Source of the DNA: Escherichia phage ECO07P3
Reading direction: 5' to 3' (one strand)
Sequence record: OP172786
DNA: 64,000 bases
In this document: positions 3,196 through 9,089 of the stretch, piece by piece
Position numbering within the stretch: position 1 is the stretch's first letter
Layout of the letters: each line of letters starts with the position of its first letter
Made by a program: the position numbers and the translations under genes
Notes under the pieces: generated by a model
Told to the model about the DNA's origin: nothing
Databases searched by the model: none
The model's input: the letters and a program-made list of their open reading frames with translations, nothing else

Positions 3196-3441
3196 TTAAT
3201 TACCACGGGCTGCATTAGCAACGGCATAAGCGTACTGAACATTAGCGTCCTTAAACGTACCTTTAGAGGTATCTATTTCTGCCTTAAAGCCGCCTTTAGC
3301 CATAACATCAGCAAATTCTTTACGGAAGGCCATTGCATCAAGACCTTTCCATGATGATTTGTGCTTAGCGAATTCAAGACCAGCGTAGTTGACAGCTTTA
3401 GCCAATTTATTATCAATGACCCATTTACCGGCTTTAGGCAC
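3196..3441 (-). CDS. Hypothetical Lys/Ala-rich small protein (GTG start)
   Basis: 81 aa ORF. I checked the start codon: it is GTG (plus cac at 3439-3441). Frame is open upstream to 3576 with no ATG. No resemblance to the DenV C-terminus. Confidence 0.35.
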   Translation of the reverse strand: MPKAGKWVIDNKLAKAVNYAGLEFAKHKSSWKGLDAMAFRKEFADVMAKGGFKAEIDTSKGTFKDANVQYAYAVANAARGN

Positions 3442-3473: not shown

Positions 3474-3710
3474 TTAAATTCCAGCGATTAACTCGATTTG
3501 GCGTAAACGTAAAAATTCGAGTTTGTTGTAAAAGAATGTTACGTGGCCTGTGCCTAAGATAAATGTTGGAGAGATTTTAAAATCCTTTACACGTTTACCG
3601 TTTTGAACATGTTTACGGACTGCACCAAATACGCGTGGTAATTCACGATACTCAGCCATAAGATGTTGGTCGGTCAGTTCGGAAACGAGTGTTAAATTGA
3701 TACGAGTCAT
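3474..3710 (-). CDS. denV: Endonuclease V (DenV, pyrimidine-dimer glycosylase) homolog, truncated at ~78 aa versus 138 aa in T4; possible pseudogene
   Basis: [35 protein letters not shown]...[20 protein letters not shown] then stop. N-terminal catalytic residues (Thr2, Arg3, Arg22, Glu23, Arg26) are present; the C-terminal ~60 residues including the aromatic WYKYY segment are absent. The real start is the internal Met of the ORF-track ORF. Confidence 0.65.
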
Positions 3711-3734
3711 AATTTCCTCCAAGTAGTTGATGAA

Positions 3735-3770
3735 TGTATAGTATCAAAACCCTTGGAGGAAGTAAACAAC
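3735..3770 (-). promoter_or_regulatory. Early promoter upstream of denV
   Basis: Minus strand TTTAC, ~17 nt, TACTAT, then ggaggaaattATG. Confidence 0.4.
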
Positions 3771-4051
3771 TATTTTTCTGAAGCGCCTGAAATATATTTT
3801 TCAAGACGTTGTTTCATCAGCGAGCCGTTCTTAGCGATTTCTTCCGGTTTGTCGCACATACGCAACAAGGCTTCAAGCTTAACGATATCACTGGTGCGCT
3901 CAAATTTGCGAGTATCTATCTTACTAGCAAGTTCAGAAATACGTGCTAATAGACTTTCAGCTTCAACCAAAGCTGCACCTAGCTTAGTTGCAAATGTGTC
4001 AGTAGCTTCGTTAAGAATAGATTCTGATAAAAATTCACTATATGTTTTCAT
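3770..4051 (-). CDS. Phage internal protein (IP) with capsid-targeting sequence, at the ipII/ipIII locus
   Basis: Starts [10 protein letters not shown] from the internal Met, fitting the T-even capsid-targeting sequence consensus MKTYQEFIAE with the gp21 cleavage context L-x-E; lies between denV and e. Confidence 0.7.
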
Positions 4052-4536
4052 ATATACGCTTTCCAAGTTCCTGTTTTAAATGTTGAGATTACGCGTTTAG
4101 CGCGATTAGGTGTCTGACGGTACCATTTAGATTGGGCTAGATTTACTGCCGCTTCGTCCCAGCGTTTCTGTTGAAGCATACGAAGAGAATTAGTAAAACC
4201 AGCGACGCCTGCTACGCCCATTTGGAAGACCATATTGACCAACGCACATCGACGAACTGCATCTAAAGAATCATATACCGGTTTAAGTTTAGCATTACCC
4301 AAGATTCCGCGAACGGCTTTATCAACGTCTTCATTAAATAGCTTTTCAGCCTCATCAAGGGTAATTGTACCGTTGCATTTACGTCCGATCATTCTGTCAA
4401 GTTCAGCTTTAGCTACGGCTAAAGACGGGTTCTTTGTTACTAAATGGCCTATGCCAATCGTCCAAAAGCCTTCAGTGTCTTTGTATAAAGTCAGTCTAAG
4501 ACCTTCATCTATACGCAACATTTCAAATATATTCAT
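4048..4536 (-). CDS. e: Lysozyme (endolysin, T4 e homolog)
   Basis: 162 aa; [21 protein letters not shown]...TIGIGHL and ...RAKRVI..F.TGTW align closely with T4 lysozyme but with many substitutions. Confidence 0.95.
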
Positions 4537-4572: not shown

Positions 4573-5013
4573 TTAAAAGAGGTTGTTCATTATTCGGTAA
4601 AGTGAAGAACCCATCACATATTGCCACTGAGTACGAGGAATAAGAGCAAAAGCATCCATCTCTGGAATCATAACGCCATCTTTATTTTCAAAATAAGACT
4701 CACAATGGCAATTTCTAAACATCTCATGCTCTACTGGAATCGTATAATAAAACAACTGTAAGTCTTTATTACTAGAATATTTAAATACACCTAGGTCTTC
4801 TAGAAGGTCTGGATTATAATTGCTAAAACCGGTCTCTTCTAAGCATTCTCTTCGTGCTGCATCTAGTGCGCTCAAATCAGAATTTTCTACACGGCCTTTT
4901 GGAATATCCCAGCGATGTGCCATCATTCCAGGCTTACGAGAACCAGTAACTCGTCCCATAAATAAATCTTTATCTTCTGTCATAAAGATAATACCAGCTG
5001 ATAGTGTTTTCAT
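4573..5013 (-). CDS. nudE: Nudix hydrolase (T4 NudE / e.1 homolog)
   Basis: Nudix box GRVENSDLSALDAARRECLEETGF; probable start is the second ATG (MKTLSAGIIF) with AGGAA seven nt upstream. Confidence 0.85.
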   Translation of the reverse strand: MKTLSAGIIFMTEDKDLFMGRVTGSRKPGMMAHRWDIPKGRVENSDLSALDAARRECLEETGFSNYNPDLLEDLGVFKYSSNKDLQLFYYTIPVEHEMFRNCHCESYFENKDGVMIPEMDAFALIPRTQWQYVMGSSLYRIMNNLF

Positions 5014-5498
5014 TTTAATTTCCTGCATTCAGTGATAAAGTTATTTAAATTTTGAGCATATTTCTTTTCATCAAAAATCTTTTGCTGCCTACGTAAACGC
5101 CATGGCATTTCAATGAACACGCACCATATTCCTGATAGTACTGCTGCTGTAAAAATATTAACAAGTATGATTAAAAGAATCCAATCTCCCGTTCTGCCTA
5201 CTGGACTTTCTCCAAAGAAGCAAAATACAAATGATGTCACAGGAAAACTAATAATATACCACAGAATCATAATCTTATCTGTGAACCAATCAGCGTTCGT
5301 TAATTTAGCGCGACCATTATGAATACACACGAATTTATCATCTGTTGCAGTAGATGGCTTAACTGGTTGATATCCCATTCTAAACTCCCTAATCAGCAAA
5401 TTTTTCATATCTTCGGAACAGCCATTCCAGTCAACTCTATCAACTGAAATGCCATCGTCCCCATCATCTAAATCATACCAGCGAGTTTTTAAAATCAT
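5010..5498 (-). CDS. Small membrane protein (soluble N-terminus, hydrophobic C-terminal half, C-terminal ...ITECRKLK)
   Basis: 162 aa; hydrophobic segments ILWYIISFPVTSFVFCFF and WILLIILVNIFTAAVLSGIWCVF; ATGA start/stop overlap with the upstream gene. Confidence 0.5.
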   Translation of the reverse strand: MILKTRWYDLDDGDDGISVDRVDWNGCSEDMKNLLIREFRMGYQPVKPSTATDDKFVCIHNGRAKLTNADWFTDKIMILWYIISFPVTSFVFCFFGESPVGRTGDWILLIILVNIFTAAVLSGIWCVFIEMPWRLRRQQKIFDEKKYAQNLNNFITECRKLK

Positions 5499-5869
5499 CT
5501 GATTTTCCTACAATCACTCACAAACTCTTTCATTGATTCATTTTCAATATAAGACATGTAGCTATTATATTCTTTTAATTGTATTTTGTAATCCTTTTTT
5601 CTTTGCCAATTTATTTTAAAATTATCATAATGAAAATATAACATGGTACCAAAGAATGAAAATAATGAAATTGCTATAGTATAACGAAGTTCACTCCAAA
5701 CTTCTATTATATCTACTATACCACTGACATTACTGCGGATGTTTAAAATAATACAATCAATCATTAATCCAATAAGACTACCAGCAAGAGCTGCAGCCAA
5801 CGCCACAGCAAAAATTAAAAATGACTCAGAAAAAGAATATTTAACTTTATTTAGTTTTGGCTTTTGCAT
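5495..5869 (-). CDS. Small membrane protein (two predicted TM helices, C-terminal ...VSDCRKIR)
   Basis: 124 aa; hydrophobic segments FLIFAVALAAALAGSLIGLMI and TIAISLFSFFGTMLYF; AAGGA six nt upstream of the ATG. Confidence 0.5.
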   Translation of the reverse strand: MQKPKLNKVKYSFSESFLIFAVALAAALAGSLIGLMIDCIILNIRSNVSGIVDIIEVWSELRYTIAISLFSFFGTMLYFHYDNFKINWQRKKDYKIQLKEYNSYMSYIENESMKEFVSDCRKIR

Positions 5870-6243
5870 CGTGATTCCTTAACAAATTTCATAATTTCGT
5901 TAAATTCATGCATATCTAATTTAAGCTGGTGTTCCTTTTTAATCTTTTTACACTGAGCTTTCCATTCGCGTACACGTTTACGATAATGTCTTCCTTGATA
6001 CCAATATCCTACCCAATTTACAGGTACCAATAAAAATGGAACTACTAATGGAAGAATTAATACTAACAAAAATATTACGCCAGATTCAATATCAGTCATA
6101 AAGTCTATAACCATTCCAATAATCAATAGAATTACAAATGATATAGCTGTCACAGGACCTATTAATACATCAGTAGGAATTAGCTGGCGCTTTAATTCAT
6201 ACTTCAACGGTTTACTTGGAAGGTATAGTGATGGTTTTGACAT
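5851..6243 (-). CDS. Small membrane protein (two predicted TM helices, C-terminal ...VKESRCKSQN)
   Basis: Hydrophobic segments VTAISFVILLIIGMVIDF and VIFLLVLILPLVVPFLLV. The ORF-track start at 6264 is a TTG; probable start is ATG at 6243 (MSKPSLYLP). Confidence 0.5.
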   Translation of the reverse strand: MSKPSLYLPSKPLKYELKRQLIPTDVLIGPVTAISFVILLIIGMVIDFMTDIESGVIFLLVLILPLVVPFLLVPVNWVGYWYQGRHYRKRVREWKAQCKKIKKEHQLKLDMHEFNEIMKFVKESRCKSQN

Positions 6244-6820
6244 ATTCTCTACATTCCTTAACAAATTTTTCTAGTAATAAATCACTTTCAAAATTAGGAT
6301 TTTCCACTAATTTATCAAAAAGATCATCAACAATATTCAAGATATTTCTTTTACTAAGAATACGTTTATTTTCATGTTTCGTTTCAGAATCAACTATAAG
6401 AGTAAAGAAATATTTCTTTCCCTGAAATTTTACTGTAGTATCAATATAGAATAAATTTGACTTTTGTAAGTTACGTTTAAACCATGCGTCACTTAAACTA
6501 TAAACACCGAGATAATCAAAATCGTCGTTTAAATAACATACTGTCCATTCAGGAGAAATGAAATCAGTAAATTCAACATCAAAATCACACGTCAATGAAT
6601 GAATTGATTCAATACTGTTAATAAGTATTCCAGGGCGTATTAAAGACTTTTTACCTCTAGAAAATCTTCCAGAAAGACTTTCATCAGTTTCATATGAAGA
6701 CCCCCAATAGTAATTACGTCCTTCTGCCATACGTTTAAGAGCATTTAGTAATTGGTCTGGAACATCAACCTGTCTTTGGAACTCTTCAAACATTGAATTG
6801 AAATCACTTTGCATTTTCAT
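6212..6820 (-). CDS. Hypothetical protein (202 aa), first gene of the membrane-protein cluster
   Basis: ORF followed tightly by the three small membrane-protein ORFs; C-terminus ...KFVKECREYVK overlaps the next gene's ribosome-binding site. Confidence 0.5.
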   Translation of the reverse strand: MKMQSDFNSMFEEFQRQVDVPDQLLNALKRMAEGRNYYWGSSYETDESLSGRFSRGKKSLIRPGILINSIESIHSLTCDFDVEFTDFISPEWTVCYLNDDFDYLGVYSLSDAWFKRNLQKSNLFYIDTTVKFQGKKYFFTLIVDSETKHENKRILSKRNILNIVDDLFDKLVENPNFESDLLLEKFVKECREYVKTITIPSK

Positions 6821-6841
6821 TCCTATTTACTCCAAGTAATA

Positions 6842-6855
6842 GGGGCCGAAGCCCC
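6842..6855 (-). terminator. Intercistronic GC stem-loop (ggggcTTCGgcccc); RNA hairpin, possibly terminator or stabiliser
   Basis: Perfect inverted repeat with a UUCG-type tetraloop between two minus-strand genes; no clear U-tract follows. Confidence 0.4.
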
Positions 6856-6861
6856 TTATCA

Positions 6862-7455
6862 TTATTTCAGAGAATTAATGTATTCCTGAACATCGGCAGA
6901 GGTAGTTTCAACCCCAGAAATATTACCATTAAAGGTTTCAACTCGAGCAAGGGTATCTTCAATATCAACCTTAGTCAGTGCTGCAATTTCAACTACATCA
7001 TCAGCAGTACTAATTCCAAGGGCATTTGCCGCACGAGTTTCACGGATATATTCCAATTTAACTGCAAGTTCTTGGCGAGCATCATCTAACTCAACTACTT
7101 TCTTGGCGATTTCAATTCGCATTTCAGCATAACCGTCAGCTTTAGTAGTCAACCGTTCAGCTGTTCGACGATATAGTAAACCGAGTTTAGCATGCATTGT
7201 TACATCTTGACCTTCGGAAAGAAGTTTTCGAATTTCACGCTCTTTTGATTCAGCCTGTCGATTCTTTTCGATAACAAGTTCACGAATACGTTTTTCTTCA
7301 TTAATAGATTTAACAGAAGCAGTTTTTAGATCTTTAATTTTATCAAGCAGTTTTGCTGCTGCAGCAGTATACTGTTCTTCAACAGATAGATTTTTAGCCA
7401 TAGCAGAACCAAGTTTAGTGCGAATAAACTCAACAATTTTCTTCAGTGTGTTCAT
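6862..7455 (-). CDS. Coiled-coil protein; PspA/IM30-like is speculative
   Basis: 197 aa, strongly helical with charged heptad-like composition ([41 protein letters not shown]...). Confidence 0.5.
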
Positions 7456-8077: not shown

Positions 8078-8112
8078 CTCATAATATCTCAATCATGAGC
8101 CTGTGTAAACTT
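8078..8112 (-). promoter_or_regulatory. Early promoter (minus strand)
   Basis: Minus strand TTTACA, 17 nt, TATTAT. Confidence 0.4.
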
Positions 8113-8374
8113 ATTTCATATTATTGAAATATTCTTCTGCGATTTCGTCGTTATCATGGTAAACTTTAGAAGACAGTTTAACATAACCTTCAGCAGTGAA
8201 CATGTTAATCACAACCTTTACAGTATACCACTGACCATCTTCATTACCCATTACTGCATAGGTTTCAAACATCGGATGGTCAGGACCGATAACTTTAATA
8301 TCATTCACTGTACGACCGAAATCTTCTGAAACGCATTTCATAAAGAAGTTGAACAGTTCGCCGTAATTATCCAT
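8111..8374 (-). CDS. Hypothetical protein
   Basis: ORF-track ORF 8111..8437; probable start is the internal Met (MDNYGELFNFF) preceded by ggagaataaaATG. Confidence 0.45.
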   Translation of the reverse strand: MDNYGELFNFFMKCVSEDFGRTVNDIKVIGPDHPMFETYAVMGNEDGQWYTVKVVINMFTAEGYVKLSSKVYHDNDEIAEEYFNNMK

Positions 8375-8414
8375 TTTATTCTCCAAGTTGTTTTCTGTAT
8401 CAGTAGTTGATAGT

Positions 8415-8450
8415 TGTATAGTACCACGGAAGAACATGGATGTAAACAGT
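8415..8450 (-). promoter_or_regulatory. Early promoter (minus strand)
   Basis: Minus strand TTTACA, 17 nt, TACTAT, then ggagaataaaATG. Confidence 0.4.
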
Positions 8451-8614: not shown

Positions 8615-8884
8615 TTATTTGATTTGTTTAGCAGACCAAATGCGGTCTTTAATAATTTTTTGGATGTCTTCAACATACTCAAGAGAGTGAACATGTGGAT
8701 TATCTTTGAAACTATAGGCACGGGCTAACTTTTGGCCTTCGGTTTTGATTACTAAAAGCTCTTTAAGGATAGCTTCATACTTAGCGATAATTCCTTTAAC
8801 AATATTTTTTTTCTTGTGTAGCTTTAGGATCTGCTTTAGGAGCAGGTTTACCCGAAGCCTTTGCAAAAGCAGCACCAGTAGCAA
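8615..8884 (-). CDS. Doubtful ORF; overlaps the 3' end of the upstream IP-like gene
   Basis: 89 aa ORF. I found no in-frame ATG/GTG/TTG downstream of the overlap, so the start is unresolved. Confidence 0.25.
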   Translation of the reverse strand: MLLVLLLQRLRVNLLLKQILKLHKKKNIVKGIIAKYEAILKELLVIKTEGQKLARAYSFKDNPHVHSLEYVEDIQKIIKDRIWSAKQIK

Positions 8885-9089
8885 CTAAACTTTTCCAGGC
8901 CATACTAACCGCATTTCCCGTAAATCCTTCGGCTTTCATATCACGAGCAAATTGGAATCGTGATTCATCGGAAGCATCTTTATAGGAATATTTACCCGCG
9001 GCAATGGCAGCTTTTGCAACAGCTTGAATTTCAGTGCTAGATGCTTCATTTAACACCGCTTCATTTAAAAATTGAGCATATGATTTCAT
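8796..9089 (-). CDS. Internal-protein-like gene with capsid-targeting sequence, in the e-to-tRNA region
   Basis: 97 aa; N-terminus MKSYAQFLNEAVLNEA fits the capsid-targeting consensus; Ala/Lys-rich body; flanked by terminator hairpins on both sides. Confidence 0.6.
   Translation of the reverse strand: MKSYAQFLNEAVLNEASSTEIQAVAKAAIAAGKYSYKDASDESRFQFARDMKAEGFTGNAVSMAWKSLVATGAAFAKASGKPAPKADPKATQEKKYC

Follow-up and report, generated by a model that had tools for sequence, protein, structure and literature searches.

In the 64,000-nucleotide (nt) stretch of Escherichia phage ECO07P3 that we analyzed (sequence record OP172786; hereafter the window), four adjacent minus-strand genes, e.5, e.4, e.3, and e.2, share a C-terminal peptide, Phi-x-x-F-[IV]-x-[ED]-C-[RK], that is about 10 residues long and variable at the Cys position. 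Our data confirm that the similarity of the four tails is real and non-random. Comparison with divergent relatives gives good support to the view that the motif is held by selection on the protein, with the translation signals of the next gene fitted around it. The shared tail is apparently an undescribed property of known T4 genes and not a new kind of system; literature searches on the gene names returned nothing relevant and no description of such a tail.

The window belongs to a Tequatrovirus, and the 3 kilobases (kb) around the four genes match several hundred genomes of this genus at 93 to 97% identity, Aplg8 and RB51 among them. The window proteins are orthologues of T4 e.5, e.4, e.3, and e.2, with 85 to 99% protein identity, and the minus-strand gene order, e.6, e.5, e.4, e.3, e.2, nudE, e, matches that of RB51 and T4 by synteny and annotation. 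The open reading frames (ORFs), peptides, and junction strings quoted in an initial annotation of this DNA were all found on the minus strand. Its length of 137 amino acids (aa) for e.4 had been counted from an upstream TTG and needs correction, as the conserved ATG gives 130 aa. The four genes are as follows.

6212–6820, minus: e.5 orthologue, 202 aa, soluble, Pfam Phage_T4_Y06P; its C-terminal helix bears LLLEKFVKECREYVK
5851–6243, minus: e.4 orthologue, 130 aa, Pfam Phage_T4_Y06O; basic cytoplasmic tail ending in IMKFVKESRCKSQN
5495–5869, minus: e.3 orthologue, 124 aa; tail ending in SMKEFVSDCRKIR
5010–5498, minus: e.2 orthologue, 162 aa, Pfam Phage_T4_Y06M; N-terminal soluble domain, tail ending in NLNNFITECRKLK

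The shared tail is rare outside the four genes

With F[VI].[ED]C[RK] as the strict form of the motif, a six-frame translation of the 64-kb window contained 3 matches, one each in e.5, e.3, and e.2, compared to 0.19 expected from shuffled sequences. A loose form gave 5 matches, 4 of which are the C-termini of e.5 to e.2, no more than 17 residues from their stops. When 80 window ORFs were compared all against all over their final 18 residues (3160 pairs), four of the five best pairs fell among e.5, e.4, e.3, and e.2. The sixth-best of the 3160 pairs joined e.6 (6862–7455) to an ORF at 8111–8437, both on the minus strand, which end in EYINSLK* and EYFNNMK*, respectively; this likeness may be due to chance.

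In ES21, a related phage with a complete genome of 166.8 kb, a six-frame search again gave 3 strict matches, limited to e.5, e.3, and e.2. A scan of IMG/VR for F-I-x-E-C-[RS]-K-TGA identified real ORFs in T4-type e.2 and e.3 only. The remaining matches lay in open frames of 4 to 73 codons unrelated to e.2 to e.5, and they fit the approximately 20 estimated to occur by chance. Thus, the tail does not seem to be present in other phage groups.

The motif codons carry or adjoin the translation signals of the next gene

The genes from e.5 to nudE overlap head to tail, by 32 nt at e.5/e.4, 19 nt at e.4/e.3, and 4 nt at both e.3/e.2 and e.2/nudE, the last two overlaps being ATGA. AAGGA or AGGA lies 6 to 11 nt ahead of every downstream ATG, within the last codons of the upstream gene, as listed here.

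6248–6265, minus: e.5 motif codons FVKECR; AAGGA at 6255–6259, e.4 ATG at 6241–6243
5869–5886, minus: e.4 motif codons FVKESR; AAGGA at 5876–5880, e.3 ATG at 5867–5869
5507–5524, minus: e.3 motif codons FVSDCR; AGGA at 5506–5509, e.2 ATG at 5496–5498 over the e.3 stop (ATGA)
5022–5039, minus: e.2 motif codons FITECR; AGGA at 5021–5024, nudE ATG at 5011–5013 over the e.2 stop (ATGA)

The repeated coupling-type junction described in the initial annotation was therefore recovered: at each one, the motif codons contain, or are closely followed by, the Shine-Dalgarno sequence and ATG of the downstream gene, and the head-to-tail overlaps of e.5-e.4-e.3-e.2-nudE are compatible with translational coupling. 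No RNA structure was detected at the four junctions relative to shuffled controls (z = 0.43, −0.26, −0.60, and 1.10). We also considered a structured RNA coupling element and rejected it, since junction folding was no better than that of the shuffled controls.

Two nudE starts are in use in public annotation. The start annotated in T4 (151 aa) corresponds to an ATG at 5026–5028 that arises within the e.2 motif, where the Glu and Cys codons read GA-ATG-C; no Shine-Dalgarno sequence precedes it. The ATG at 5011–5013, 15 nt further downstream, has a well-spaced AGGA, and the RB51 annotation (146 aa) starts there.

Coupling at an ATGA stop/start with the Shine-Dalgarno sequence inside the upstream gene is classically represented by Escherichia coli trpE-trpD and trpB-trpA and is common in T4. 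The window resembles these classic cases in its four successive overlaps, in the Shine-Dalgarno sequences within the last upstream codons, and in its unstructured junctions. It differs from them in that the signal-bearing upstream coding sequence also encodes a peptide that is conserved at the protein level and common to non-homologous neighbors.

The tail is conserved across genera despite codon turnover

Divergent relatives were gathered by tblastn and from IMG/VR. In Mosigvirus, which is approximately 45% identical to the window, the tails read QFIMECREYVK (e.5), EFVKEIRCKS (e.4), and NFIKECRK* (e.3). In Gaprivervirus, at approximately 20 to 30% identity, they read RFIAECREYAK (e.5 position), EFIKEVRNGTA (e.4), and TFIKECKS* (e.3-like). 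The Gaprivervirus-type e.2-like gene stands at another locus, where an unrelated 78-aa gene follows it, and ends in EFIKECRK* or SFIEECRK*. The Gaprivervirus protein at the e.5 position matched window e.5 by BLAST in the tail only, with a weak collinear core in hhalign (79% probability). Over the three genera, the nine tail columns were usually 5 to 7 of 9 identical, compared to 19 to 55% identity for the rest of each protein. Even between non-homologous families the tails can be close: LNEFIKECRK of e.2 and LNRFIKECRE of an e.5-like protein are alike at 8 of 10 positions.

These residues are written in many codons. The motif Arg is encoded by AGA, AGG, CGA, CGT, and CGC, and both alternatives occur for Cys (TGT/TGC), Val (GTT/GTG), Ile (ATT/ATC), Phe (TTT/TTC), and Glu (GAA/GAG). 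Position x is unconstrained, with K, M, A, T, S, I, and E all observed. The Shine-Dalgarno sequence moves as well: it is the AAGGA of K-E at many junctions, the AGGA of R-K in e.3 and e.2 of Tequatrovirus, which have S-D or T-E instead of K-E, and the GAGGA of E-E in the e.2-like gene of Yersinia phage P8. In e.5 of the Gaprivervirus SP18, an intact FIAECREY contains no Shine-Dalgarno sequence, which lies 24 nt downstream of the motif, and where a Gaprivervirus e.5-like gene has Lys at x, the codon is AAA, so that no Shine-Dalgarno sequence is formed.

Codon turnover, a mobile Shine-Dalgarno sequence, persistence across genera, and the lack of junction RNA structure together argue for protein-level selection on the tail. 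It is thus well supported by these comparisons that F, I/V, E/D, C, and R/K are held by such selection and that the translation signals were fitted into free or synonymous positions. The initial annotation had read the peptide as encoded by the DNA that serves as the next ribosome-binding site. This holds as far as the Shine-Dalgarno sequence and start do lie in or just after the motif; however, the peptide is not merely a translated ribosome-binding site, because its residues are kept through codon turnover.

Three of the four proteins are predicted membrane hairpins

Hydrophobic helices had been proposed for e.4, e.3, and e.2, and we found two strong segments each in e.4 and e.2 and one strong and one weaker segment in e.3 (KD19 hydropathy of 2.47 and a marginal 1.31, respectively). 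e.5 has no hydrophobic segment. The transmembrane (TM) helices of e.4 span aa 28–46 and 55–77; in e.3, TM1 spans aa 17–42 and the weaker second segment aa 61–80. Hydropathy and charge distribution, together with an AlphaFold2 (AF2) model for e.2, indicate that e.4, e.3, and e.2 share a two-TM hairpin and a basic cytoplasmic C-tail, the second TM of e.3 being marginal. All three proteins have clusters of basic residues in their N- and C-terminal flanks, and we therefore infer that they are N-in/C-in inner-membrane hairpins with a cytoplasmic tail of 35 to 50 residues.

The AF2 model of e.2 (predicted local distance difference test [pLDDT] of 71) places TM1 at aa 74–95 and draws one continuous helix from 103 to 161, in which TM2 runs into the cytoplasm with the motif at the tip. 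The e.5 model was poor (pLDDT of 56), with the tail drawn as a helix at 181–196. The hydrophobic residues of the tail, at −3, 0, +1, and +4, are spaced as expected for one side of an amphipathic helix.

Probable paralogy outside the tail is limited to e.3 and e.4

In full-length hhalign comparisons, e.3 and e.4 aligned over 117 collinear columns (E = 1.8e-5). With the tail removed, 100 collinear columns were retained (E = 1.8e-3), compared to approximately 0.2 for the reversed-profile control. The N-termini of e.4 and e.3 are also alike, M-[SQ]-K-P-x-L (MSKPSL and MQKPKL), and 16 identical nt, AAATTTGTTAAGGAAT, occur at the e.5/e.4 and e.4/e.3 junctions of the window. By contrast, e.3 and e.2 aligned in the tail only (16 to 25 columns), as did e.5 with e.2 and e.5 with e.3, for which trimming left nothing. 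The e.4/e.2 comparison was no better than controls, and the same was true of e.3/e.2 and e.4/e.2 without the tail. BLASTP among e.4, e.3, and e.2 was not significant or was confined to the tail. An exhaustive HMMER search of 1.84 billion proteins with an e.3 profile returned 7 matches, five to e.3 orthologues or fragments and two weak and partial ones to unrelated proteins, and reached neither e.4 nor e.2.

These alignments suggest that e.3 and e.4 are probably old tandem paralogues, that e.2 shares their predicted architecture and the tail, and that e.5 appears to share the tail only. The paralogous membrane-protein family proposed in the initial annotation thus has weak support for e.3 and e.4 from hhalign outside the tail but none for e.2, which has no detectable similarity to them outside the tail. 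A 10-nt sequence in TM1 of both e.4 and e.2, TCCTGTGACA, was considered as evidence of paralogy and dropped; approximately 0.2 such matches are estimated by chance, and the profiles are blank there.

Junction repeats serve as deletion sites and e.2 is dispensable

T4_ev151 and an IMG/VR genome (L009) have no e.2. In both, e.3 ends in DCRK-LK, joining the e.3 body to the e.2 ending, and shares an ATGA with nudE. T4 has the 9-nt TGCAGGAAA at both junctions, and the crossover falls inside this repeat. The same hybrid tail stands directly before nudE on a different e.3 background, of the 124-aa type (P0015 and L047). In approximately 13% of Tequatrovirus records, 20% or more of the e.5–e.2 block is missing.

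A second rearrangement was found in five genomes (UFV05 and four others), which encode a 106-aa chimera of e.4 residues 1 to 32 joined to e.2 from TM1 on (L017, 2501–2821). The join is the shared 10-nt sequence in TM1 (window positions 6148–6157 and 5235–5244); e.4 beyond residue 32, the whole of e.3, and the N-terminal domain of e.2 have been lost. Shortened forms of e.2 are also found: the T4 protein is truncated to 102 aa (L003, 3153–3461), compared to the full 162 aa in the window, and several other phages have either a 102-aa form or an N-terminally shortened form of 122 aa (P0120 to P0126). e.2 appears to be under relaxed selection in Tequatrovirus. The losses and the chimera show that these phages can do without e.2 and that the repeats provide the microhomology for losing it in frame.

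Comparison with known families and systems

The four proteins fall into separate PHROGs, all of unknown function: PHROGs 2607, 2604, 2330, and 2203 match e.5, e.4, e.3, and e.2 over their full length (E = 3.7e-109, 4.5e-71, 2.6e-62, and 1.8e-79, respectively). No model in the local Pfam copy matched the four proteins; precomputed Pfam results on close homologues gave Phage_T4_Y06P for e.5, Y06O for e.4, and Y06M for e.2. The T4 proteins e.5, e.4, e.3, and e.2 are UniProt entries Y06P, Y06O, Y06N, and Y06M, and the Pfam families are PF26876 (Y06P), PF26873 (Y06O), and PF26896 (Y06M). For T4, too, the databases hold four separate families of unknown function, and nothing in the window genes is different in kind.

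Scans with Pfam, PHROGs, NCBIfam, and PADLOC and a PDB sequence search identified no characterized family for any of the four proteins. Public records name e.3 or e.4 a sulfurtransferase or DNA primase, e.6 a host specificity protein, and e.5 a phosphoserine phosphatase; no profile match backs any of these labels. The initial annotation raised superinfection exclusion and lysis control as possible roles. The superinfection-exclusion proteins Imm and Sp of T4 resemble the hairpin proteins in being small, early, inner-membrane T4 proteins. No match to these families was found in Pfam or PHROGs (E ≤ 0.1), and none in NCBIfam or PADLOC.

Among known systems, the clamp (gp45)-binding C-termini shared by T4 gp43, gp33, and gp55 resemble the e.5–e.2 tail in that a short conserved C-terminal peptide is found on several non-homologous proteins of one phage. 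Unlike these, the tail is not similar in sequence to the clamp motif, and three of its four carriers are membrane proteins. Mosigvirus and Gaprivervirus carry, downstream of e.3, an array of three or four small soluble tandem paralogues ending in W-V-S-S-S-x-x-C* (L004, 2784–3578; L005, 2746–3771). Here the likeness lies in adjacent small genes with conserved C-termini followed by a TAAGGAA-N-ATG junction; however, the array members are paralogous over their whole length, whereas among e.5 to e.2 only e.3 and e.4 resemble each other in this way, and weakly.

Neighboring features

The features flanking the four genes are as follows.

6862–7455, minus: e.6
6841–6856, minus: hairpin GGGGCTTCGGCCCC with a UUCG loop, between e.6 and e.5, at the upstream limit of the overlapping chain
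4573–5013, minus: nudE (Nudix hydrolase), last in the overlapping chain, without the motif
4048–4536, minus: e, lysozyme

The hairpin was the sole element above shuffled expectation in a promoter and terminator scan, and the coding strand has no T-run after it. Standing at the head of the overlapping chain, it probably serves in RNA stability or processing or acts as a weak terminator.

Farther along, denV (endonuclease V; 3474–3722, minus) stops after about 78 residues (MTRINLTL...ELIAGI*), compared to 138 aa in T4, and is followed by an unrelated 81-aa ORF (3196–3441); denV thus looks truncated or replaced. Two small minus-strand ORFs (3770–4051 and 8796–9089), one with the N-terminus MKSYAQFLNEA, have N-termini resembling the capsid-targeting N-termini of T4 internal proteins, and we take them to be, probably, variable Ip genes.

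Discussion

We propose that e.5, e.4, e.3, and e.2 are co-transcribed early T-even genes for one soluble protein and three inner-membrane hairpins, and that all four would end in a common cytoplasmic C-terminal helix module with the ~10-residue peptide at its end. The downstream translation signals occupy the positions that the motif leaves free: Lys at x followed by Glu yields AAGGA, Arg-Lys written AGG-AAA yields AGGA, and the final Lys with the stop yields ATGA. The module may have spread by local duplications whose unit included the junction and started inside the tail of the upstream gene; a unit of this kind would account both for the common N-terminus M-x-K-P-x-L of e.4 and e.3 and for the same tail on the soluble e.5. 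The module would then have been kept for docking, the tails letting the four proteins bind a partner that they have in common, or each other, on the cytoplasmic side of the membrane. To this explanation as a whole, comprising the conserved helix module, the embedded coupling signals, the duplication origin, and the docking, we assign a probability of roughly 60%.

Several points weigh against it. The docking role is pure inference. The motif is degenerate, with Cys replaced in e.4 (by S, I, or V) and Arg by Lys in the Gaprivervirus e.3-like protein, and only three or four lineages are available, which makes for few independent evolutionary replicates. The Arg codon tends to follow the genome, being AGA in all three Mosigvirus tails and CGT in Gaprivervirus e.5, e.4, and e.2-like genes; with so few lineages, this may reflect gene conversion between junctions and not independent purifying selection. 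Finally, e.2 is frequently missing, shortened, or located at another genomic site, which makes an obligate complex of the four proteins unlikely.

The tail may be an unrecognized short linear motif through which one soluble and three inner-membrane early proteins bind a shared target, of host or phage origin, or come together via the conserved Cys, for instance by a shared metal site or a disulfide; we hold this only tentatively. That the tail is the relic of duplication, with e.4, e.3, and the hairpin of e.2 as tandem paralogues and the tail as the best-preserved remnant of that ancestry, possibly gene-converted and functionless in itself, we regard as unlikely. The collinearity of e.3 and e.4 beyond the tail relative to reversed controls, the similar N-termini with the 16 nt repeated at two junctions, the hairpin-plus-basic-tail architecture common to e.4, e.3, and e.2, and the genome-correlated Arg codons all speak for such a relic. 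Yet soluble e.5 has nothing but the tail in common with the others, the signal between e.2 and either e.3 or e.4 is gone once the tail is removed, and the exhaustive search from e.3 fails to reach e.4 or e.2. Nor would a neutral remnant stay the most conserved segment of proteins at 19 to 30% overall identity, or persist in the unlinked copy of e.2.

Two further explanations place the selection on nucleic acid, and both seem to us improbable. In one, a favored initiation region (U-rich stretch, AAGGA, spacer, ATG) is reused at the RNA level, and the likeness of the peptides is a by-product of reading it in one frame. TTT-ATT-AAG-GAA indeed puts a T4-type Shine-Dalgarno sequence 6 to 11 nt ahead of the ATG at many junctions, and the motif stands 5 to 14 nt upstream of the next start at every window junction. 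However, a bare Shine-Dalgarno sequence can be read in any of three frames, whereas the frame here is constant and the same residues come in different codons. Tequatrovirus e.3 and e.2, with S-D or T-E in place of K-E and no Shine-Dalgarno sequence there, still keep the acidic residue, Cys, and Arg, and SP18 e.5 has the motif without one, e.4 starting 24 nt downstream with its own AAAGGGG. In the other, the junction is mainly a homology box for in-frame insertion, exchange, and excision of cassettes, as in T4-type hyperplastic regions. The e.2-less genomes, which crossed over inside 9 nt and were left with an intact e.3, a hybrid tail, and a direct nudE junction, are what such a linker predicts, as are the incomplete e.5–e.2 blocks in ~13% of Tequatrovirus records and the e.4/e.2 chimera at 10 nt in 5 genomes. 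Against this, microhomologies of 9 to 10 nt mediate illegitimate deletions anywhere, the two best-sampled e.2-less genomes are each other's closest relatives, so that independent events may be few, and a DNA homology box needs no amino-acid conservation across synonymous changes.

If a conserved helix module with embedded coupling signals is the correct reading, the junctions would represent a case of dual coding, in which the same 20 nucleotides satisfy two selective demands, one on a peptide and one on the ribosome-binding site of the next gene. The repeated junction also permits clean in-frame gene loss. A tail without a function of its own would be an annotation curiosity of a well-known phage. 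Should the tail prove to be a short linear motif, the four ORFans would work together as one system whose coupling signals co-evolved in the free positions of the motif. e.2 to e.5 belong to the large share of T4 genes without known function, and the tail offers an experimental handle on them and suggests that the four genes be treated as a unit.

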